Source: a virus. From it: a stretch of DNA of 64,000 nt. Shown here one piece after another: positions 760-21,835 of the stretch (its first letter is position 1; every line of letters begins with the position of its first letter). Location: IMG/VR virus record IMGVR_UViG_3300031957_002677, positions 25,836 to 89,835 of that record; one strand, given 5' to 3'. The notes below the pieces were generated by a model that worked only from the letters and a program-made list of their open reading frames with translations, had not been told where the DNA came from and made no database searches. The position numbers were made by a program, and so were the translations under genes.

Positions 760-1014
760 TCACCAACGAGTTTGAATCAGTGCAGAGTTGAAAAGTTGTG
801 GTTCTGTATGAAGATCAGTCACTTCATAGTTGTAACCATAAACACGATTGTCAACCTCTTTTTCAAACGATTCTTTGTTGATGTAGGACTTAGATTGCAT
901 GTCATTAGCAAATGTAACCGTCTTATACATTAGACGCTCACTGATACTTCCATCAGCATATTTGACGGGGTAGAAGTCAACAACCATGTTTCCGTGCTGT
1001 GCTGTGAGTTGCAT
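760..1014 (-). CDS. hypothetical early protein
   Basis: 84-aa ORF directly downstream of a repeated early promoter element. Confidence 0.75.
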   Translation of the reverse strand: MQLTAQHGNMVVDFYPVKYADGSISERLMYKTVTFANDMQSKSYINKESFEKEVDNRVYGYNYEVTDLHTEPQLFNSALIQTRW

Positions 1015-1030
1015 CGGGTTGAATCCGTTT

Positions 1031-10686: not shown

Positions 10687-12021
10687 TCAACTATTCTTAT
10701 CTAGTACGTCTTTAAGAGCAGCAAACCACTTGACTGCTTTTTCTGCTGGGAATGAATTATCATCTCTCTCATTATCAGTTAGTGTAGTATAAAGTTGCTC
10801 TGGATCAATACCATCCATAAGTGTTAGGATTTCATCAATAGATTTGTCTTCACCACTTTCAATTTCCTGACGTTCAATGTTAGTCCTAATAAGTTTTTCT
10901 TGCTCAGCAGCATAACCACTACTATAAGATGATTCAAGTTTTTGTTTCTGAACTTTTTTATACTCAACTTCTGCTTTTTCAAATTCACGTTCTACAGCAT
11001 CATCAAGTTCGTCATATGCTTCTTCTTGAGACATTTTATTGAGAAGATCTTCATGTGCCCTCATAATAATATCTAGTTCTTGTTCCTTCTGAATCTCAAA
11101 TTGAGTTCTTTCTCTCTCCAGTTCTCTCTGAATCCTCTCCCTATTCAAGTTAATTTGATCTTGAACTTCTCTATTCTCTAATTCAATAATCTCTAGAACT
11201 TGTTTCTGCGATTCAATTTCTATCTTAGAAATATCGAGTTGTTCTTCCTCAAGCAACCTTACTTTTGCTATCATTTCTTCTCTCATTGCTCTTTCTTTAT
11301 CTTCGAGAGCAAGATTTTTCTCAGAGTCATCAATTTCACGTTCTATCTTGTCACGTTCCATTTGAAGCAGTTCTTGATACTGCTTTCGTTCTTCCACAAA
11401 GTGTTCCTTTTCTTTCTCAAAATCATGATAAAGTTCATCATATTTTTTAGAAAGTTCTAGAGACTTTTTCTCGAAGAACTCATCTGCTTTTTGTGCTTCT
11501 AACCCTGCTTTTTCGGACTCACGTGCTGCTTTTTCACGTTCAAGTTGAATATTAGCATTTTGTTTTTCATATTCTAATGCTTGCTCTTTCTTAGACTTTT
11601 CATCGTAAAGATTCTCTCTCTCATCACGAAGTTCTTTGTTCTGCCTCTGAAGATCTTCAATAATAACAAGTTGTGCTTCTTTCTCCAGTTTATCTAGATT
11701 TAATTCCTCGATCTGAGCAGCAAGATTTTCCTCTTCTTTTAGTGCAGATTCAAGTTCTTTTTTCTCATATACATCCAAAAATGTATTGAAATAATCTAAG
11801 TATGGTTGAATAATAGTATTAAATTCATCTTCACCAAAAACTTTATTGGGTGCAGGATCTTCACCAGGAGTATCTTCATACTCTAGTTCACCTCTACCAT
11901 CTCTCCATTGAATAGCATGAATAGTCTCGTCATCAAAATCCCAAGGTGCATCATCCTCAAGATCTACAGTACGACCATCTACGATAATTTTTTTATCTTC
12001 TGGAATAATAGAAATTCTCAT
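10687..12021 (-). CDS. fibre-assembly-like N-terminal domain fused to a long acidic coiled coil
   Basis: N-terminal ~85 aa (IIPED..IIVDG...IHAIQW..G.GELEY) resemble small proteins found next to cyanophage fibre genes; followed by ~350 aa of E-rich helical sequence. Confidence 0.6.
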   Translation of the reverse strand: MRISIIPEDKKIIVDGRTVDLEDDAPWDFDDETIHAIQWRDGRGELEYEDTPGEDPAPNKVFGEDEFNTIIQPYLDYFNTFLDVYEKKELESALKEEENLAAQIEELNLDKLEKEAQLVIIEDLQRQNKELRDERENLYDEKSKKEQALEYEKQNANIQLEREKAARESEKAGLEAQKADEFFEKKSLELSKKYDELYHDFEKEKEHFVEERKQYQELLQMERDKIEREIDDSEKNLALEDKERAMREEMIAKVRLLEEEQLDISKIEIESQKQVLEIIELENREVQDQINLNRERIQRELERERTQFEIQKEQELDIIMRAHEDLLNKMSQEEAYDELDDAVEREFEKAEVEYKKVQKQKLESSYSSGYAAEQEKLIRTNIERQEIESGEDKSIDEILTLMDGIDPEQLYTTLTDNERDDNSFPAEKAVKWFAALKDVLDKNS

Positions 12022-12398
12022 TGTTGATCCTCTTCAGATTTTGGTAGTAAGTTACTTTCTTCAGTATTATCTAGTTGTTCGATGTATTCGGAAACATTGA
12101 CACCCTGATCTTCACACATATCAAGATACATATTACCAACAGCATCTAGCATATTCTGATTGGTTTCATGTGCTTTCACCATTTCATTTCTAAATGACTC
12201 AACAGCAGAACTGGTAGATCTTTGTTGCTGACTGTTTTCAATCATAAGCATTGGCATCCATTGAATTGCACACGACCAATGATCTACTTGCTGACCAGTA
12301 TTAGGATCTTGCCCAGCAATATGTGTGTACCATGCACACTTATGTTCGACACAATCCTTTTTAATAAGAGGACACCACTTGCCAGATGCTTTAGTCAT
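12018..12398 (-). CDS. Cys-rich fibre-associated protein
   Basis: WCPLIKKDCVEHKCAWY...WSCAI (4 Cys, putative metal site), AVESFRNEMV helix, acidic tail. Confidence 0.65.
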   Translation of the reverse strand: MTKASGKWCPLIKKDCVEHKCAWYTHIAGQDPNTGQQVDHWSCAIQWMPMLMIENSQQQRSTSSAVESFRNEMVKAHETNQNMLDAVGNMYLDMCEDQGVNVSEYIEQLDNTEESNLLPKSEEDQQ

Positions 12399-12417: not shown

Positions 12418-12450
12418 TATTTATTATAGCACGATCAATCCAAAGTGCAA
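12418..12450 (-). promoter_or_regulatory. overlapping sigma70-type and T4 late-type promoters
   Basis: TTGCAC-N16-TATAAT with extended TG (TGCTATAAT), immediately followed by ATAAATA (12418-12424). Confidence 0.55.
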
Positions 12451-13697
12451 AGGATCACATCGATATATTGAACTCTCAATGGTGATAATGAAGCAACAAA
12501 ACTAACAGGACTTCCACTAAATGGATGACTATGTGGTTGACCACCACCAGTTGATGATGTTGCTGGACCTTGAGTATTGCTATTTCTAATAGTACCACCA
12601 GGAGTCAAAATTCTCTGTGTTACCCTCACACTTGTAGTTTGTGGATATCTTTGAGGTGTACGATATGCTCTTGGTTGCCTATAAGCTGCAGGATTTCTTT
12701 GAGGAACTGTAACTCTGAATGGAATATTCACTCGGAAAGAATTTCTCTGTCTGAATGAATATCTCACTCTGAATGATCTAGGTTGCCTCTGTCTAAATGA
12801 TCTCCTCTGCCTAACATTTCTAGGTTGTCTAGTATTACGAGGTTGACGGAAAGATCTTCTCTGCCTAGAAGATACAGGTCTCCTAAACTGCCTTCTCTGT
12901 CTCCACCAACTTACTCTAGGTTGTCTTCTATCTGCTCTTCTTGGGATTCTATCATTTCTCCTTCTCCTACCCCATCTTCTTCTAGGTGTTCTGTCATTAT
13001 TTCTGACACTTGCTCTCCAAGATTGACCAATAGGGTTTCTCCATCTTCCACCATCAACACGGAAACTGAACGGTCTTCGTGATCTTAAAGGAACACGAAA
13101 AGCAATAGGAACTCTGAAACTGATTGGTCTTCTAGAACGTGTAGGGTATCTAACTCTTTGGTTTCTTGGTTGTCTCTGTCTGAGTGGAACTCTTTGTCTT
13201 CGTGGTTGTCTATAGTTACGAGGTTGCCTTACATTAGTTGGTTGTCTAAAGTTGACAATAACACGGTTATTGATCTGGACTCTTCTTGCCGCTCTAATAT
13301 TATATCCACGTGGTTGCCTATTACTGGTTCTAAATGGTGAAGAACCAGCAGATGATCTATATGAGTTTGGATTACTTCCCGTATTATGTGTATGTGCTGG
13401 TAATTGTTGAGTGGTAAGTGTAGTACCACCCGAAGAACCTGCAATGGTCGAACTACAATTTGCATCTGCACCTGCATCAGCAAATACTGCACTAAAATCA
13501 AGTGCTCCAGATGATAATCCACCAGTACCATCTACAACTCTAAGTGATTGATCATTTGCCTGTGTTTCTTTGGACCATCCAGTTGGTGCTGATGCTTGAT
13601 AAAACACCATTGTAGAGGATTGTGGAATGATCCCATAAAATGTTGATAATTGAGTACCATTGCCAAATTCGATCCCATCTGCTCTTAAAATAGACAT
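12435..13697 (-). CDS. HxH fibre-tip-like protein with ~240-aa Arg-rich hexapeptide-repeat insertion
   Basis: N- and C-termini align with paralog 13708..14244 (FYQASAPxGW, TTLTTQQxPxHTH, PATSxTGGGxxHxHPF, LRVxYIDVI); insert lies between the two HxH motifs. Confidence 0.75.
   Translation of the reverse strand: MSILRADGIEFGNGTQLSTFYGIIPQSSTMVFYQASAPTGWSKETQANDQSLRVVDGTGGLSSGALDFSAVFADAGADANCSSTIAGSSGGTTLTTQQLPAHTHNTGSNPNSYRSSAGSSPFRTSNRQPRGYNIRAARRVQINNRVIVNFRQPTNVRQPRNYRQPRRQRVPLRQRQPRNQRVRYPTRSRRPISFRVPIAFRVPLRSRRPFSFRVDGGRWRNPIGQSWRASVRNNDRTPRRRWGRRRRNDRIPRRADRRQPRVSWWRQRRQFRRPVSSRQRRSFRQPRNTRQPRNVRQRRSFRQRQPRSFRVRYSFRQRNSFRVNIPFRVTVPQRNPAAYRQPRAYRTPQRYPQTTSVRVTQRILTPGGTIRNSNTQGPATSSTGGGQPHSHPFSGSPVSFVASLSPLRVQYIDVILCTLD
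12570..13360 (-). repeat. coding 6-aa (18-nt) period Arg-initiated repeats
   Basis: RQPRNY/RQPRRQ/RVPLRQ/RQPRNQ...RQRRSF/RQPRNT/RQPRNV/RQRRSF/RVRYSF/RQRNSF/RVNIPF/RQPRAY. Confidence 0.85.
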
Positions 13698-13707
13698 ATA
13701 TTATACC

Positions 13708-14244
13708 TCAACTAAAACGACAGATAATGACATCAATATACTTAACTCTTAGATCAATATTTCCAGTATATGGTGATGCTCCACCATTAAATGGGTGAGT
13801 ATGTGCTGCACCTCCACCAGTTGGTGATGTTGCTGGAGCACTGGTATTTACAGCACGACCACCAATACCAGGAGATCCAGGACTTACATTAACCTGAGAA
13901 CCAGCATTATGAGTATGCCCAGGAATTTGTTGAGTTGTCAATGTTGTAGGTCCTAATGAACCAGCAGCAGTTACAGTTCCACTAATTGGACGAGTTGATG
14001 TGGGAAATATTGTGGAGAATGGTTGTCCACCAGGACCAGCAGTTCCACCAGAACCAAATCCACCACCAGTTCCAGATACAACTCTAAGTGCCTTATTATT
14101 ATGAGAAGTTACTTGTGCCCATCCACTAGGTGCCGATGCCTGATAAAATACTGCAACACTATTTTGAGGGATAATTCCATATTTAGAGTTCAGAACGGTA
14201 TTATCAGATCCAAATTGTATACCACTCGTTTGTAAAATAGACAT
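13708..14244 (-). CDS. short tail fibre tip / collar-domain protein
   Basis: FYQASAPSGW collar motif, TTLTTQQIPGHTH and AAHTHPF HxH motifs, YIDVIIC C-terminus. Confidence 0.75.
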   Translation of the reverse strand: MSILQTSGIQFGSDNTVLNSKYGIIPQNSVAVFYQASAPSGWAQVTSHNNKALRVVSGTGGGFGSGGTAGPGGQPFSTIFPTSTRPISGTVTAAGSLGPTTLTTQQIPGHTHNAGSQVNVSPGSPGIGGRAVNTSAPATSPTGGGAAHTHPFNGGASPYTGNIDLRVKYIDVIICRFS

Positions 14245-14278: not shown

Positions 14279-14285
14279 TATTTAT
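14279..14285 (-). promoter_or_regulatory. T4-type late promoter
   Basis: ATAAATA 35 nt upstream of the fibre-tip gene pair. Confidence 0.55.
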
Positions 14286-14962
14286 CCAATATTAAATGCG
14301 ATGGATATTCTTTCTTCTTGACTAAAGTGTGGTGTAACATAATGTGCGACTGTAGATGGCATTAAATAGAAAACATCTTCCTTAGGTTCAATTACCCACT
14401 CACAATTCCCAGGAATATCAGCAAAACAAGCATTGTGATTTGATGGATCAGTTCTTAGTAAAGTGAGTTTACCTTCCTGTTCATTTAGGTTCTTAGGAAT
14501 TTTTGGATAATAAAGTCCAATAACAGTACATCCAGGATGAGTATGATAAACATTATATCCCATTCCCTTGTTAATGTTAATCCACCATCCAATTTGATTA
14601 TCATCTACCCTATAAGTTGCACCAAAGTCTTCCAGCATTTCATTTGTTAGATCGATGGCATTTCTTGCTAAATTTTGAACAGCAGGAGTTGTTGTTCTTT
14701 TGATTGTGGGTAATTCATAAACCTGACTTTGCCATCCTTCACCAAAATTAGATTTTTTCACTCCATTAGGAAACTTTCTCATTAGATCATAACATTCATG
14801 GATAAGAGATTCGTTATCAATATCTAAAGTGAAAGTATATAGTGGTGTGATGAAGAGGTCATCACGACTTTTGTCAGAAACAGTAATCTCTGAGAAATTA
14901 TCATCGTTTGGACTAATCTCAGCTCTAAATCTGTGCATATCAATCTTGCTCCTCAGTTTCAT
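14282..14962 (-). CDS. 2OG-Fe(II) oxygenase-like protein (TIGR02466-like, HxH)
   Basis: SNFGEGWQS, WININ, HTHPG, VAHYVTP, ERISIAFN. Confidence 0.8.
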   Translation of the reverse strand: MKLRSKIDMHRFRAEISPNDDNFSEITVSDKSRDDLFITPLYTFTLDIDNESLIHECYDLMRKFPNGVKKSNFGEGWQSQVYELPTIKRTTTPAVQNLARNAIDLTNEMLEDFGATYRVDDNQIGWWININKGMGYNVYHTHPGCTVIGLYYPKIPKNLNEQEGKLTLLRTDPSNHNACFADIPGNCEWVIEPKEDVFYLMPSTVAHYVTPHFSQEERISIAFNIG

Positions 14963-15677
14963 TCATCATAAAAAATACTTGATTAATTCTATATTCAGCA
15001 TCACTATAGTGATCACCAAAATAATGTTCACCAGTTAAGTTCATACTATGATAATAATATGATCCTTCAAACATTGCAAATCTATTAAATTTTGAACGAA
15101 AACTAACTACAATTTCCCATAAGTTTTTTGGTGTCCATGGTATTGCATGTTCATCTCTAACACCATTATTTTCATCCAGAGGTAAGAGGTCTGGATTATC
15201 AGTAATTAATGGTTTATATAAGTTAGTCCCTATCTCATCATTCGTGGATAAGTAACAGATACCATTATATCCTCCATCATGATGAGGCCACCAGTAATGA
15301 CTTTCATATGGATTATCATCAATTCGTGAGAATCTTGTAAAATTAGTTACTATTTCATCCACATCTGCCGATTCTTGATTACAAATACCTGAGATCTTAT
15401 TGTATAGTGAAGACATACCAGGATGCTTCATCATATGTCTACGATCCTCAAAGTTCTTGGTGTTGAGTGTACCTCTACCAAGTTCCCAATCTTCTCCCAT
15501 TTTCCACAATGGTGGTTCAATAGACAGAAGATATTCATAGACATCATATGGTCTTTTATAAAAATTATCCATCCAATAAAAATTGGAAACCTTATCACCA
15601 TCATAAAACTCAATGATATTCATATTAGAAAAATCATTGGTATCAAACAATGAATGATCATTTGCAAAATTTTTCAT
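14940..15677 (-). CDS. 2OG-Fe(II) oxygenase-like protein
   Basis: MDNFYKRP, WPHHD, ICYL, GTNLY, KFNR, YYHSM, YRINQVFF. Confidence 0.7.
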   Translation of the reverse strand: MKNFANDHSLFDTNDFSNMNIIEFYDGDKVSNFYWMDNFYKRPYDVYEYLLSIEPPLWKMGEDWELGRGTLNTKNFEDRRHMMKHPGMSSLYNKISGICNQESADVDEIVTNFTRFSRIDDNPYESHYWWPHHDGGYNGICYLSTNDEIGTNLYKPLITDNPDLLPLDENNGVRDEHAIPWTPKNLWEIVVSFRSKFNRFAMFEGSYYYHSMNLTGEHYFGDHYSDAEYRINQVFFMMNETEEQD

Positions 15678-16285
15678 AAAAATATCTCCTGTATTTTTTC
15701 ATCATCTAAACAAAATCCAAAAACCCATAATATTCTAGGAGTATCACCTTTAGTCGGAGTTACTTCATGATGAATCTCAGATACTTGATATATCAAAAGG
15801 TCTGTAGAATTTATGTCTTTATATTCTACACCACCAATGATAGTATGTCCACCCACATCTGCCTGTTGTGTGATAGCATTGAAGTGAACTGTTTTAGTAT
15901 TTGGATAATATGTAGGGTCAATATGATTATCTATTCTACCACCTTCATATCCAATTCCATTTACGATTCCATGACTATATGATGGTGGACTTTTATACCA
16001 TTCTAGATGAAAATAATTGATTATTCTTTGCCTGACAATATGTGCAGCATTAGGATATTGTATATCTGGAGCAACTGATTCATTTGGAAACCGAGTTGTA
16101 AATCTCGTTCCAGGATTATCAGGATCCATGTTAGCATCCTCAAAGAATTCTTGATTACAATTATCAAGAGTCCATTGATTAAGTGCCTTTACATCATCTT
16201 TGAATATAAAATTGCGAAGAATAAATGATTTAGACATCTTGGGTGCAATACTCACCACCACCCTTTTCTTCATCTGCAAAAGCAA
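15674..16285 (-). CDS. 2OG-Fe(II) oxygenase
   Basis: NHIDP, GG, IHHEVTP, PRILWVFGF; true start may be the downstream MSKSF. Confidence 0.8.
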   Translation of the reverse strand: MLLQMKKRVVVSIAPKMSKSFILRNFIFKDDVKALNQWTLDNCNQEFFEDANMDPDNPGTRFTTRFPNESVAPDIQYPNAAHIVRQRIINYFHLEWYKSPPSYSHGIVNGIGYEGGRIDNHIDPTYYPNTKTVHFNAITQQADVGGHTIIGGVEYKDINSTDLLIYQVSEIHHEVTPTKGDTPRILWVFGFCLDDEKIQEIFL

Positions 16286-16898
16286 AACTCTCGTATTCTG
16301 TATTCAAATTAAATGAAAGAATAATTCTGTCCTCATCACTTTCATTTGGAGCAGTGTAATGAAGAACATATGATGGGAAGAAAAGAATAGATCCTTCTCT
16401 AATTCCTGGTGGAAGAGTATTACAAATCTCAGTATCTGCTAGATTGGGATTTAGAAATATGGTTGGTGTGTGTTTATTAGGATCAAATTTAATGAAACAA
16501 ACAGCACTAAATCCCTGCGATCCATGATTATGAACCTGATGAAACTTACTATGAGTTGCTCTCTCAAACCAAGACGTACATACTTCTACAGCACACTCAA
16601 AGGTATCCGAAAAAGATTCTAATTCTGATTGAAGAATCTGCGTAATCTCTCTATCATAAGTTTCTCCAGTATCATGATTATGATGATAGTCAGTTTCCAC
16701 ATCTAGAGAAGATTCTGAACCTGTAGCAATCTTAAATTTATCTCTTTCATCCCTTCTCCGTTCAAACATATCAAGGAGAATTGCTTTCTTTTCCTCCCAG
16801 TCTTCTACTTTAAGATGTAGAAGTGGAACAGAAAACATAGGAATCAAGTATTCACTATGCCCTTCAGGAACTTCACAGTATAAATGAAAATTTGACAT
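16230..16898 (-). CDS. 2OG-Fe(II) oxygenase-like protein (TIGR02466-like, HxH)
   Basis: MFSVP, HQVHNHG, FSAVCFI, EGSILFFPSYVLHY, RIILSFN. Confidence 0.8.
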   Translation of the reverse strand: MSNFHLYCEVPEGHSEYLIPMFSVPLLHLKVEDWEEKKAILLDMFERRRDERDKFKIATGSESSLDVETDYHHNHDTGETYDREITQILQSELESFSDTFECAVEVCTSWFERATHSKFHQVHNHGSQGFSAVCFIKFDPNKHTPTIFLNPNLADTEICNTLPPGIREGSILFFPSYVLHYTAPNESDEDRIILSFNLNTEYESFAFADEEKGGGEYCTQDV

Positions 16899-18748: not shown

Positions 18749-21700
18749 TCAATACAACCCAGCATCAATCTCAACATTTACAACATTTAGAACTTCTTTT
18801 ACCTCTACTCCTGTGTCAATAGTATTTGCTTCAAAGATTGTAGTGATTCCAAGAGTGTTGCTTATGTTGATATAGAGATTTTGTAACTCTATCTCAGATG
18901 GAAGTCCTTGAGGTAGGAGATAACGATCTCTTCCAACTTCACCAGTGCCAGGATCAATATTTACATCGGTGCGGATTGCAACTCTTCCAGCAGATTGATC
19001 ATAGAAAATACCAGCATACTTATGAGTTGAAAGTCCAACATCATAACGTGCCATCAAAATACCAGCATCACCAGTATTTCCTACTGCTACATTAGGTGGA
19101 ATAAGTGTTCCTTGATTAAGTGGATCTTCAATGAGACCAAGTGTGAGAAGGTTATCTCTAATGTTAACATCTTCAACATTCAGTCTTGCTTCATTACCAT
19201 TGAAGAATGCACTATTAGCAGTAACATCACTTGAAATTGCAACATTACCAGTGCCATCATCCATTGCAATACAGATTGTTCCACCACCAGCACGCATAGT
19301 GCCTGTGCCTACTTGTAAATCACCTGTGACAGTTGTCAATATATCACTATCCATTGTGATATTATCTTGACCATTACTTGCACGAATGATGTTACCACCG
19401 ACTTGAATTGGTCCAGCAAATATGGTATTATTATTTGCTACCATAGTGATATTAGTATCACCAGTACCTGCTAGAATATTATTTCCTTCAACTCTGATGT
19501 CACCAGTGAAACTTGTTAGTTCCTGAGCATCAAACATCAAGATATTAACTGTACTATCAGATGCTAGAATTTGATTTCCACGAACTTCTAGATCACCATA
19601 AAGAATAGTTTTAGAATCACCTTCTATTGTAATGTTAGTAACACCAATACCATCTTGAATATCTCTTCCACCAACAACTAAATCACCAGTAATTTCAGTA
19701 TATGTTGCACCAAGACCAATTTGAATTGCAGTAAATTCGTCAGATGATTGAATAACATTCTTACCAAGTCTCAAGAAACCAGTAAGTTCTGTGACATTAT
19801 TCCTAATGGTAGCAATACCAATATCATCTGCACCAATAACAACATCTTCTCCAGATTTGAATAAGTCTGCTCTTTGTGATGTATCAGCAATATCAATAAC
19901 ATTAGAGTCGCACTTAATATGAGTACCACCAATCTGAACGAAACCTGCAAATGCTGTTGAAGTAGCACTATCAAGTGTGATATTTACTTGCCTATCACTT
20001 GCTTTAATTTCATTTTGTGATAGAATCAGTCTTGTAAGTTCTGTATTTTCACTTCTAATTGATGTAATAGATCCTGCCTGTTCACCTTGACCCATGTCAA
20101 TGAATTGTGCTCCACCTGCAAAATTCAGTTCAGTAACACCATAATTTAATAGGTCAAATCTTAATTCTGGATTTTCTACTGATGCATTGATTGCAGTGCC
20201 AAGAACACTTAAGTTATTGTGTACGAATAGACTTGTACTAAATGCATCCAGATAGAAACCTGGATTAACAAACATTTGTGCTCCAGCATCAGTCTGAGAA
20301 GTTCCAGCATTTGCCATTGCTGGATAGAAGAACTCAGGATTTGTGCTATTATTTACATCTTGCTTATAAACGTCTACATTATTTGCTTGGAAAGCAGTAG
20401 AAACGAATGCATTATTGAAATTATCACTAATAACGTTTAAGAATCCATTGATTGTTGCAACACCAACATGATTAAAGAAACCAGCACTATCAACATTAGC
20501 AAACCTCGACTTACCTGGACCAACATCTAGGTATATTTCATTTTCATCCGTATTACCAACTCCAGCAACATTTAGATATGCAATCGTTGCACCCAAACCA
20601 ACGTCTAGGTTCACCAAATTTGCTTGACTGTCAGTTCCCTCAGGACCAACATCTAAGAAGTTACTAAAAATAGTATTCCAACGACCACCGTCACTACCAA
20701 TACCACCAGTTGGAATGTTATTAGTATTTGGTAATAAATTTGAGAATACTGCACCATCAGTATTAACCTCAGTTTTTCCCAATGGAGCAAATGATGATTG
20801 TTTAGAAGATGGTGTCATACCAATCGAAAGGATTGGCATCTCCAAATTCATATTTCCGTAAAATCTACTGAGTACATCATCACCGAGATGATCTTCAGAT
20901 CCACTAGTTCCACCTAATCCATAACCAACTTCAATATATTCGGAAACACTAAATCCATAACCAACTTGTCCAAATTGACGAACCTCCATACCACCAGTGG
21001 TGAAAATGGCGGCAGAAGCTGCTTCTGTATCAATACCTGCTTGTGCCCAGTCACCTTCACGTTGATCATTAAATACTCTCAACCTTGCTTTTTCTGAATT
21101 ACCTGGTTCACGGACGATATTAATGTCCTCCATACAAGTGATGGTGTCATAAAATAGGGATTCGGGAACAACAACGAACTCAGTTCCTAAACCAGTCTCA
21201 CCACCATTTATAGGATCAGTGATAAGTGGATCACCACCATTAAAGTGAACTCTACCAGAAACATATAGTGCTACTTCTTTGGGATCTGCTGCACCAACAT
21301 TATCAATTACAACTAAACCGTGTGCTGTAAAATCATCATCCGCAGAACCATTGATAGTACCACCAGGACCAGTGACTGCGATACCAATATCAGCATTACT
21401 ATTTGCCGCATTACCACCTTGTGCTCCAGCAACAGGAACATTTGGTTGTCCAATATAAACCGTTCCCATTCCTGAGTCACGGGCAAGCGTAGTAACTCCA
21501 GTAACTACAAGATCCCTAGTTGTTGTGAGTCCACCTACGTTTAACTTGGGGAATGTTGCTCCGAAACCAGTTACAGAACCACTAGATCCATTATCAACAT
21601 TTAAGTTTCCTTCAATATAAACATCGTCTAGTAAATATGTCTCATTAAAGTTAATCAGTGAATCATCAGCAGTAGAACCTCTTGCTGTTCTCTCTGTTAG

Positions 21701-21835
21701 ATAGTCACCGACTGTGCTACCGATACCAACACCACCCAACATGACTAAAGATGTTGATAATCCTATGTTTTGATTGGCATCTCTAATTTCAACAAAAGAT
21801 GCAAATTGAGATAATTCTCTACTATTTCTAGTCAT
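18749..21835 (-). CDS. large tail fibre / virion structural protein
   Basis: 1028 aa, G/T/I-rich beta repeats (TGDLxVGG.xI.xSDG), C-terminal IDAGLY; late promoter upstream. Confidence 0.75.
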   Translation of the reverse strand: MTRNSRELSQFASFVEIRDANQNIGLSTSLVMLGGVGIGSTVGDYLTERTARGSTADDSLINFNETYLLDDVYIEGNLNVDNGSSGSVTGFGATFPKLNVGGLTTTRDLVVTGVTTLARDSGMGTVYIGQPNVPVAGAQGGNAANSNADIGIAVTGPGGTINGSADDDFTAHGLVVIDNVGAADPKEVALYVSGRVHFNGGDPLITDPINGGETGLGTEFVVVPESLFYDTITCMEDINIVREPGNSEKARLRVFNDQREGDWAQAGIDTEAASAAIFTTGGMEVRQFGQVGYGFSVSEYIEVGYGLGGTSGSEDHLGDDVLSRFYGNMNLEMPILSIGMTPSSKQSSFAPLGKTEVNTDGAVFSNLLPNTNNIPTGGIGSDGGRWNTIFSNFLDVGPEGTDSQANLVNLDVGLGATIAYLNVAGVGNTDENEIYLDVGPGKSRFANVDSAGFFNHVGVATINGFLNVISDNFNNAFVSTAFQANNVDVYKQDVNNSTNPEFFYPAMANAGTSQTDAGAQMFVNPGFYLDAFSTSLFVHNNLSVLGTAINASVENPELRFDLLNYGVTELNFAGGAQFIDMGQGEQAGSITSIRSENTELTRLILSQNEIKASDRQVNITLDSATSTAFAGFVQIGGTHIKCDSNVIDIADTSQRADLFKSGEDVVIGADDIGIATIRNNVTELTGFLRLGKNVIQSSDEFTAIQIGLGATYTEITGDLVVGGRDIQDGIGVTNITIEGDSKTILYGDLEVRGNQILASDSTVNILMFDAQELTSFTGDIRVEGNNILAGTGDTNITMVANNNTIFAGPIQVGGNIIRASNGQDNITMDSDILTTVTGDLQVGTGTMRAGGGTICIAMDDGTGNVAISSDVTANSAFFNGNEARLNVEDVNIRDNLLTLGLIEDPLNQGTLIPPNVAVGNTGDAGILMARYDVGLSTHKYAGIFYDQSAGRVAIRTDVNIDPGTGEVGRDRYLLPQGLPSEIELQNLYINISNTLGITTIFEANTIDTGVEVKEVLNVVNVEIDAGLY

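Follow-up and report, generated by a model that had tools for sequence, protein, structure and literature searches.

In the T4 gp37 tip (PDB 2XGF), an elongated needle, D11, is inserted in a collar, D10 (PMC6957217). The beta-helix of T4 gp12 has ~6 residues per turn, and this protein binds metal through an HxH on its threefold axis, binds LPS and depends on a chaperone for its folding (PMC3004832). That chaperone, gp57A, is a phage-encoded helical protein which is needed to trimerise gp12, gp34 and gp37 and is absent from the particle (PMC3004832).

Cyanophages control Synechococcus and Prochlorococcus, and it is their receptor-binding tips that set the host range; their accessory fibres are almost unknown. 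Here we describe a pair of paralogous genes in a 64,000-nucleotide stretch of viral DNA (the window, meaning this whole stretch), one of which carries a long Arg-rich insert between two HxH motifs (Table 1). New here is that loci bearing the insert pair with a long acidic protein and insert-less loci with a short form of it.

Table 1. Positions of the paralog pair, of the parts of the insert and of the neighbouring features in the window.
Feature	Position	Strand	Basis or remark
Short paralog, 178 aa, putative stand-alone HxH fibre-tip (collar-type) domain	13708..14244	-	ORF, profile and fold matches
Long paralog, 420 aa, net +69, pI 12, same putative domain split by Arg-rich insert	12435..13697	-	
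HxH motif 1, H102-T-H104	13386..13394	-	invariant in family; aligns to HxH of 9qgo and 9nxk
HxH motif 2, H389-S-H391	12525..12533	-	invariant in family; aligned in 9qgo/9nxk profile matches
Arg-rich, Lys-free hexad-repeat insert, 284 aa, residues 105-388	12534..13385	-	composition, omega, family
Outgoing arm, ~residues 124-215, predicted beta	13053..13328	-	AF2 strands 124-157, 163-187; period 2.0; hexad layout
Poly-Arg/Gly centre, residues 239-247, predicted turn at G243	12957..12983	-	AF2 register
Returning arm, ~residues 272-363, predicted beta	12609..12884	-	AF2 strands 300-324, 330-363; period 2.0
p126, small Cys-containing acidic protein	12018..12398	-	constant module member
Acidic helical protein, 444 aa, net -59, D+E 127	10687..12021	-	two genes downstream of insert protein
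Double 2OG-Fe(II) oxygenase, prolyl-4-hydroxylase-type PF13640	9280..10677	-	last gene of tight block
Four 2OG-Fe(II) oxygenase-family genes directly upstream	14282..16898	-	syntenic in insert-bearing loci
T4-type late-promoter-like core ATAAATA	14279..14285	-	41 nt upstream of short paralog

The paralog pair and its HxH motifs

The initial annotation had proposed that the two proteins align at both ends around an extra stretch of ~240 residues between HTH and HSH, and BLASTP bears this out. Residues 1-118 of the long protein match the short one at 49% identity (E 6e-27) and residues 365-417 at 51% (E 2e-13), while the distance between the HxH motifs is 284 residues in the long protein compared with 35 in the short, leaving ~249 extra. 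All four motif histidines of the long protein (H102, H104, H389 and H391) are invariant in an alignment of 36 long-family sequences; in the alignment of 48 short-family sequences, H110, H148 and H150 are invariant and H112 is near-invariant. In solved relatives, the two HxH motifs provide metal ligands on the trimer axis.

Profile comparisons support the assignment of both proteins as paralogs of a putative HxH tail-fibre-tip domain. The short-family profile matched PDB entries 9qgo (E 6e-12) and 9nxk (E 4.8e-8) with both HxH motifs aligned, and 9qgo was also matched from a single sequence (E 7e-4). When the AF2 model of the short paralog (pLDDT 77.6) was compared with the PDB using VIA-align, 11 of the 12 chains at Z>=2 were phage or eCIS fibre or baseplate proteins, among them the gp12 RBD, the gp37 tip (811..1025), gp10 and gp11; the matches to 1ocy, 2xgf and 2fkk are weak (Z 2.7-3.2, with a best overall Z <= 3.5) and compare a monomer model of what is presumably an intertwined trimer. 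Foldseek with the same model returned matches at E >= 0.18 only. In Pfam, the long protein matched no family and the short one had a single unrelated weak match at E <= 1, neither of them matching the tail-collar family PF07484, and a PHROGs search gave a weak 'tail protein' match for the long paralog only. An hhalign comparison of the short-family profile with the single T4 gp37 785-1026 sequence reached a probability of 0.5%, with the HxH motif alone aligned. For the Synechococcus phage S-SCSM1, the authors' HHpred analysis gave gp12, gp10 and gp37 at 96-99.5% (gp12 99.2%), and they also obtained a Phyre2 match to gp37 for the short ortholog.

Forty-five S-SCSM1 proteins are flagged as virion proteins, and the ortholog of the short paralog is one that carries the label '(virion protein)'. 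The ortholog of the long paralog is unflagged, an absence that is weak because the protein offers only 6 usable tryptic peptides (13%). Also unflagged is the ortholog of the acidic protein, despite 26 usable tryptic peptides, which span 71% of the protein.

Composition, selection and predicted fold of the insert

An exact count over the 284 residues between HTH (102-104) and HSH (389-391) gave R79, K0, E0, D4 and W5, in agreement with an earlier manual count of about 79 Arg, no Lys, no Glu and 4 Asp. Arg accounts for 28% of the insert against 3.9% in the window's other genes, where K/(K+R) is 0.59, so the Lys-free excess of Arg lies far beyond chance. The 6-residue periodicity already seen by eye is recovered as peaks in the Arg autocorrelation at lags 6, 12 and 18 (0.28, 0.34 and 0.22). 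Pro recurs every 6 residues, the hexads of the arms are of the type aromatic/aliphatic-R-Q/V-P-R-N, and lag-6 autocorrelation of Arg and Pro is present both in the window's insert and in much of the family; residues 239-247 form the RRRWGRRRR centre. The insert contains 0 His in the window's protein and 0-2 across the family, with no internal HxH metal sites. In this it differs from the gp37 needle, along which HxH iron sites are repeated; with that needle it shares its placement as an elongated insertion between the N-terminal and C-terminal parts of a collar-type domain. A search of the ESM Atlas with the insert produced a weak lead (0.81) to Phage_fiber repeats, below the level that excludes shuffled proteins.

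Comparison with the S-SCSM1 ortholog shows that the insert is conserved, not neutral, which goes against the outcome named initially as a refutation. The two sequences are colinear, with no indels over 284 aa, omega is 0.245 at a dS of 0.63, and 75 of the 79 Arg are conserved, 23 of these through different codons. On this comparison, the insert is real coding sequence under purifying selection. DNA slippage is rejected because TRF finds a single repeat (18-bp x 3.6, at 12712-12776) and the ortholog comparison indicates purifying selection; an artefactual frame is rejected as well, on the basis of omega, the colinearity and the 23 synonymous Arg changes. The initial annotation had also excluded slippage, arguing from diverse codons, and here its conclusion survives but its argument does not, as AGA makes up 71% of the Arg codons of the insert, near the 61% that is usual in the genome.

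Homologs were collected and their inserts compared: ~62 metagenomic clusters share the split-domain architecture of the long protein, with inserts of 275-364 aa and net charges of +35 to +93, and in 53 of the 62 the insert contains 0-1 Lys. Down the series of relatives, identity drops to ~30% for the long protein but stays at 54-68% for the short paralog, and in distant members Arg is partly replaced by Gln. Marine metagenomes commonly contain the insert-bearing family, whose one cultured member is S-SCSM1 (on WH7803).

For the long protein, AF2 gave a poor monomer model (pLDDT 51.6, pTM 0.17), with pLDDT of ~70 in the arm cores and low values especially at residues 213-274, and Foldseek with this low-confidence model gave no PDB match. 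Its strands follow the register i+j=487, which places the midpoint at 243/244, and the strand breaks of the returning arm mirror those of the outgoing one. In 30 clusters with inserts of 283-361 aa, the poly-Arg/Gly centre lies at 0.489 +/- 0.008 of the insert. The lengths of the two arms are correlated across the family (r = 0.95) and stay equal while the insert varies by 78 aa, the main step in length being ~36 residues (6 hexads) added per arm. A hydrophobic period of 2.0 dominates in both arms. The arm-length symmetry, the period-2 hydrophobicity and the AF2 strand register together argue for an out-and-back topology, and these computational results support the prediction of a two-armed beta hairpin with a basic centre. 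They agree with the two arms and basic centre described initially; the Trp residues that were part of that description are not conserved at the apex, since the number of Trp per insert ranges from 0 to 9 in the family and is 1 in S-SCSM1.

The gene block and the acidic neighbour

The two paralogs, p126, the acidic protein and the double oxygenase make up a tight five-gene block. The late-promoter consensus of T4-like cyanophages is NATAAATA. The ATAAATA core is found at -26 to -43 in 16 of the 21 loci listed and CTAAATA in four of the five others, with flanks that are unconserved in some. The exact TATAAATA motif shows no enrichment in the window; what carries weight is solely the conserved position ahead of the short paralog. 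This conserved late-promoter-like motif and the tightness of the block suggest that the long ORF is a late gene.

p126, for which neither Pfam nor PHROG returned a family, follows the collar paralogs in insert-bearing and insert-less loci alike, and insert-less loci likewise have a homolog of the PF13640-type oxygenase after the module. The paralog pair keeps its synteny with four oxygenase genes upstream and three downstream of it down to ~30% identity. The S-SCSM1 genome has 24 genes of the 2OG-Fe(II) oxygenase type.

The acidic protein is built from a conserved N-terminal domain and an acidic helix of ~300 aa, with a helical periodicity of 3.7 and no clear heptad signal in the helix region; searches of Pfam and PHROG found no family for the protein, and the ESM Atlas none for its N-terminal domain. 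It is 431-500 aa long in all insert-bearing loci as against 114-178 aa in insert-less loci, where the short form sits beside neutral collars, and both forms have the same N-terminal domain. The insert-less loci form one clade, and on the tree the joint expansion of insert and acidic protein falls on a single branch and thus represents one evolutionary event; for the same reason, an interpretation of their co-occurrence as many independent events was rejected.

The net charges of insert protein and acidic protein are nearly equal and opposite (+65/-62, +87/-72 and +37/-38). Insert and acidic protein covary after phylogenetically independent contrasts (PIC) in charge (r = -0.65, p ~0.0007) and in length (r = 0.58, p = 0.03). 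However, a PIC charge correlation is also seen for a neighbouring helicase (-0.66), p126 (-0.82) and several oxygenases (~-0.5). Charge complementarity was therefore rejected as proof of specific co-evolution, and the correlation may reflect lineage-wide composition. The acidic protein is a candidate partner or chaperone of the insert protein.

Possible functions and comparison with known systems

The explanation that we propose, and to which we give an even chance of being correct, is that the long ORF encodes a late fibre-tip paralog whose insert forms a polycationic needle and whose acidic neighbour acts as a chaperone. The long protein would be encoded by a late gene and be paralogous to a small fibre-tip protein of the virion, one of the 'collar' kind known from T4 gp12, gp37 and gp10; in one clade of marine T4-like cyanophages, the loop between the HxH motifs of the long protein would have expanded to an out-and-back beta hairpin. 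Each arm would consist of ~140 residues of hexads, with the poly-Arg/Gly centre as the turn. In a trimer, the hairpins would assemble into a thin six-stranded needle that combines the topology of the gp37 needle in its collar with a 6-residue period like that of the gp12 beta-helix, carries ~+70 charge per chain and has no internal metal sites. A trimer with a charge of ~+200 would need counter-ions or strong screening. Such a needle may serve as an accessory polycationic fibre or adhesin on the polyanionic envelope material of Synechococcus or Prochlorococcus. The acidic helical protein, in turn, would be a non-virion, charge-shielding assembly chaperone in the role of gp57A, working perhaps as acidic chaperones do for histones or protamines.

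If the arms were not folded, the insert could be a polycationic tether or brush, intrinsically disordered and looped out from the tip domain, and conserved in composition and charge but not in structure. Although its richness in R, P, Q, N and S, the low AF2 confidence, above all at residues 213-274, the divergence of the long protein relative to its better-kept short paralog and the partial exchange of Arg for Gln would all suit a disordered tether, we consider it unlikely, as the insert lacks indels at a dS of ~0.65 and is conserved position by position, it has a dominant period-2 hydrophobic pattern and a hexad register, its arms stay equal in length as it varies, and the arm cores are modelled with a consistent antiparallel register. 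It is improbable, too, that the long protein acts outside the virion as an intracellular trimeric binder of polyanions such as RNA, DNA or polyphosphate, restrained by the acidic protein: its flanking domain appears to be a fibre-tip domain, its short paralog is a virion protein, and the late-promoter-like motif points to co-transcription of the two. An extreme Arg content is well suited to phosphate binding, a charge-matched acidic neighbour would fit such restraint, and neither the long nor the acidic ortholog carries a flag in the virion proteome of S-SCSM1, but the low number of usable peptides leaves the absence of the long one weak.

The acidic protein might instead be a permanent component of the fibre, with the beta arms clad by length-matched acidic helices in a stable, charge-neutral heteromeric structure. 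We regard this arrangement as very improbable because its ortholog is not among the 45 virion proteins despite its many usable peptides, the short acidic form exists beside neutral collars, the helix region has no clear heptad signal and the charge covariation is not specific; the near-equal, opposite charges, the covarying lengths and a back-of-envelope estimate by which a ~140-residue beta strand and a ~310-residue helix would both span ~46 nm are the points in its favour. Finally, the Pro/Arg/Asn-rich hexads could serve mainly as an array of hydroxylation substrates for the 2OG-Fe(II) oxygenases encoded on either side, stabilising or tuning the fibre, a reading that can be combined with any of the others and that we find decidedly improbable as the chief explanation. 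The synteny of the oxygenase genes, the prolyl-4-hydroxylase-type double oxygenase at the end of the block and the Pro at every sixth residue are consistent with it, yet the same oxygenase follows the insert-less module, so that the link is not insert-specific, and with so many oxygenase genes in S-SCSM1 adjacency can be due to chance.

Returning to the polycationic needle with its acidic chaperone, a bolder version of that proposal is possible and is offered tentatively: a previously undescribed two-protein fibre design, in which a Lys-free Arg-hexad beta needle (~+70 per chain) would depend on a Glu-rich helical protein that co-evolved with it and matches it in charge and length, as a dedicated polyelectrolyte chaperone or transient sheath, might be hydroxylated by the flanking prolyl-hydroxylase-type oxygenases, and would act as an adhesin that attaches electrostatically to the anionic envelope of marine picocyanobacteria. 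A fibre-tip domain with an Arg-only needle of ~280-360 aa would represent a novel means of building a trimeric beta fibre and stabilising it without metal sites, and the locus would offer a natural case of the handling of an extreme polycation by a matched acidic partner.

Among known systems, the T4 gp37 tip offers a similar topology: its collar has a long N-terminal and a short C-terminal part, separated by an elongated insertion that runs out and back and has the tip at its far end (PMC6957217). The HxH motifs are shared, and the short paralog weakly matches the fold of gp37 811..1025 (Z 2.8). However, the gp37 needle has 128 aa and is held by seven His-coordinated irons, whereas the inserts here have 275-364 aa of Arg-rich hexads, ~+70 charge and no internal His; the protein here is a tip domain only, without a shaft, and hhalign against the single gp37 sequence detected no sequence homology. 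With T4 gp12 (1OCY/1H6W) the insert shares the 6-residue period and the beta alternation (hydrophobic period 2.0), and the fold match is again weak (Z 3.2), but gp12 has a long N-terminal shaft, baseplate attachment and ordinary composition, and its helix does not form an insertion that runs out and back. By profile, the closest relatives are the solved tail fibres 9QGO and 9NXK (Pseudomonas phage Pa223), which also have a variable loop between the HxH motifs; these loops are, however, tens of residues long and not Arg-rich, and the domain is at the C-terminus of a longer fibre.

The acidic protein may be compared with the fibre-assembly chaperones gp57A and gp38: its gene lies with that of the putative client, and its S-SCSM1 ortholog is not flagged in the virion. 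gp57A has 79 aa compared with 444 aa here, of which ~300 aa would form the acidic helix, in addition to the conserved N-terminal domain. Protamines and Arg-rich cell-penetrating peptides resemble the insert in that their basic charge comes from Arg only, Lys being avoided, and in having an acidic partner of matching charge. They are, however, short or disordered, and their targets are nucleic acids or membranes, whereas the Arg-rich part here is a long, periodic and apparently beta-structured insertion in a phage fibre domain.

The paralog pair and its gene block

The source viral contig (89.8 kb, estimated completeness 39%) derives from a T4-like cyanomyovirus whose DNA is ~80% identical to that of Synechococcus phage S-SCSM1 (Kyanoviridae, host WH7803). 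BLASTP matches the short paralog to residues 1-118 and 365-417 of the long one at 49-51% identity, which bears out the alignment at both ends proposed in the initial annotation. Relatives of the short paralog (3,060 representatives) occur as stand-alone proteins, as C-termini of long fibre-like proteins, or as triple tandems; many proteins (e.g. P0145, P0159, and P0168; ~580 aa) carry three tandem HxH fibre-tip domains per chain, which could be trimer mimicry inside one polypeptide.

A 48-sequence profile of the short family finds two solved structures of trimeric tail fibres, 9qgo at E 6e-12 and 9nxk, from Pseudomonas phage Pa223, at E 5e-8; in each case the two HxH motifs line up. The short paralog, modelled with AF2 (pLDDT 77.6), has weak structural matches: Z >= 2 was reached by 12 of 48,161 chains, 11 of them phage or eCIS fibre/baseplate proteins, including the T4 gp12 RBD, the gp37 tip (811..1025), gp10, gp11, and the fibres of Pa223 and of cyanophage A-1(L). 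The S-SCSM1 authors' HHpred and Phyre2 searches gave gp12, gp10, and gp37 at 96-99.5%. A Pfam search of the paralogs matched no family, the tail-collar family included, and hhalign against one single gp37 sequence gave no match. By profile and motif, the ends are filed under the HxH fibre-tip domain, an assignment short of proof that the fold is the same.

The block runs from four 2OG-Fe(II) oxygenase genes through the short and then the long paralog, p126, the acidic protein, and a double oxygenase of prolyl-4-hydroxylase type to more oxygenases, and this order is kept in viral contigs where identity drops to 28-31% for the long protein and 54-68% for the short one. A late-promoter-like core, ATAAATA, lies at -26 to -43 upstream of the short paralog in 16 of the 21 loci listed (CTAAATA in four of the other five), and the next four genes follow at spacings of 10, 36, -4, and 9 nt. 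The small protein p126, found after the collar (HxH fibre-tip-type) paralogs in every locus, insert-bearing or insert-less, matches no family in Pfam or PHROG, has a homolog in P-SSM2 (PSSM2_029; S-SCSM1 supplement), and could serve as a small assembly factor that binds metal. The N-terminal half of the double oxygenase matches phrog_3531 and phrog_2954, whose 'ferrochelatase' label looks doubtful.

Features of the block and its surroundings (window positions)
Feature	Position	Strand	Remarks
Double 2OG oxygenase, 465 aa	9280-10677	minus	C-terminal half PF13640 (prolyl-4-hydroxylase type)
p126, 126-aa acidic protein	12018-12398	minus	four Cys in N-terminal 45 residues (CP..C....C ... C)
Long paralog, 420 aa	12435-13697	minus	ORF, 10 nt downstream of short paralog
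18-bp tandem repeat	12712-12776		3.6 copies, 75% match; returning arm of insert (SFRQR-type hexads)
Short paralog, 178 aa	13708-14244	minus	ORF
1028-aa ORF	18749-21835	minus	ortholog of S-SCSM1 ORF236, annotated 'virion protein'; no PHROG family

An arginine-rich insert under selection

The stretch between HTH (102-104) and HSH (389-391) in the long protein is 284 aa long and contains 79 Arg, 4 Asp, and 5 Trp but neither Lys nor Glu; the Arg, Lys, Glu, and Asp counts are exactly those first reported. The short paralog has 35 aa between its HxH motifs. In the long protein the autocorrelation of Arg has peaks at lags 6, 12, and 18. Since Arg makes up 3.9% of residues in the other genes of the window and K/(K+R) is 0.59 there, the Lys-free Arg excess is extreme.

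Sequence comparison shows that the insert is genuine coding sequence under selection, as first proposed, and not a product of slippage. The S-SCSM1 ortholog (ORF245, 421 aa) is colinear across the entire insert, with omega 0.245 at dS 0.63 (Nei-Gojobori; 0.42 for the N-terminal domain), and 75 of the 79 Arg are kept, 23 of these via different codons. Trp is not conserved (one in the ortholog's insert). AGA accounts for 71% of Arg codons, mirroring genome usage (61%), and TRF found only one small tandem repeat (18 bp) in the gene, a trace of hexad-triplet duplication.

Among 5.8 billion proteins searched, ~62 clusters (90% identity level; 411-514 aa) are similar over the full length, down to ~32% identity. 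All have an insert, of 275-364 aa and net charge +35 to +93, with 0 to 9 Trp; Lys numbers 0-1 in 53 clusters and up to 10 in the most distant member. Most members show a six-residue periodicity (lag 6) of Arg and/or Pro, and distant ones carry Gln in place of many Arg (YQQPxx hexads) while retaining the poly-Arg/Gly centre. S-SCSM1 alone has the long form among 50,697 isolate phage genomes; the DNA is present in marine metagenomes of 13 studies.

Three lines of evidence, independent of one another, favour an out-and-back beta hairpin, in agreement with the topology first suggested. In the 30 clusters having an unambiguous poly-Arg centre (inserts of 283 to 361 aa), this centre falls at a fraction of 0.489 +/- 0.008 along the insert and arm lengths correlate (r = 0.95), the main length step being ~36 residues, or 6 hexads extra per arm. 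In both arms the main period of the hydrophobic residues is 2.0, superposed on the hexad register. Finally, the AF2 monomer model of the long protein, poor overall (pLDDT 51.6), predicts strands at 124-157/163-187 and 300-324/330-363; all of their ends and breaks obey i+j = 487, which places the turn at G243 within RRRWGRRRR.

The acidic neighbour and the role of the insert

The acidic protein of the window has 444 aa and net charge -59. Where the downstream gene is present at insert-bearing loci, all 29 (26 distinct pairs) encode a 431-500 aa acidic protein with a shared N-terminal domain; in the 28 insert-less loci where it was found, whose two or three collars measure 170-211 aa, it is always 114-178 aa, with the same domain and without the long acidic helix. 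It was not found in four further insert-less loci. The long and acidic proteins nearly balance each other in net charge (+65/-62, +75/-65, +87/-72, +37/-38), and their charges correlate (Spearman rho -0.78; independent-contrast r -0.65, p about 0.0007). The co-expansion is real; because the insert-less loci form one clade, the presence or absence of the insert with the long acidic form counts as a single event. Specific charge co-evolution is not demonstrated, as a helicase, p126, and several oxygenases give similar contrast correlations, over smaller ranges.

The insert-less form of the module occurs commonly in other viral contigs (L042:8001-10034; L041-L076), with two or three 170-211 aa collars (three in L072, L073, and L076), a homolog of p126, and the acidic protein in its 114-178 aa version. 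S-SCSM2R (PQ898602.1 188955-192419) has three small collar-like proteins, two annotated 'baseplate protein', then a wcaG ncRNA and a 530-aa 2OG oxygenase; its annotation has no obvious p126 or acidic gene.

The most likely reading, at roughly even odds, is that the long protein is a late fibre-tip paralog that forms trimers and whose loop at the tip would have grown into a long polycationic beta needle. It would act as an accessory adhesin that contacts anionic polymers of the envelope, with the acidic protein as a non-virion, charge-shielding chaperone. The insert might instead be a disordered polycationic loop, which we consider unlikely given the arm symmetry and strand periodicity, the low model confidence notwithstanding. 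The '(virion protein)' note in the S-SCSM1 record marks a selective subset, consistent with 45 MS-detected proteins; it is on the short ortholog and absent from the long, p126, and acidic ones. For the long ortholog this is weak evidence, because an in silico digest yields only 6 usable tryptic peptides (13% coverage), and that the long protein is an intracellular polyanion binder seems improbable. The acidic protein has 26 usable peptides (71% coverage) yet is unflagged, so it is probably not structural; a stable heteromeric fibre of the two proteins is the least probable reading. It is slightly more credible, and still a long shot, that the insert is a substrate array for the oxygenases of the block, an idea combinable with the others.

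The favoured needle-and-chaperone reading has precedents in T4. In gp37, needle D11 (882-1009) is inserted in collar D10 (811-881 plus 1010-1026), as the insert would be within its collar domain; the gp37 needle holds seven His-bound irons (PMC6957217), whereas by residue count the window's insert has no internal His. The gp12 beta-helix has ~6 residues per turn and requires a chaperone, gp57A, that the particle lacks (PMC3004832); the acidic protein would play this role here.
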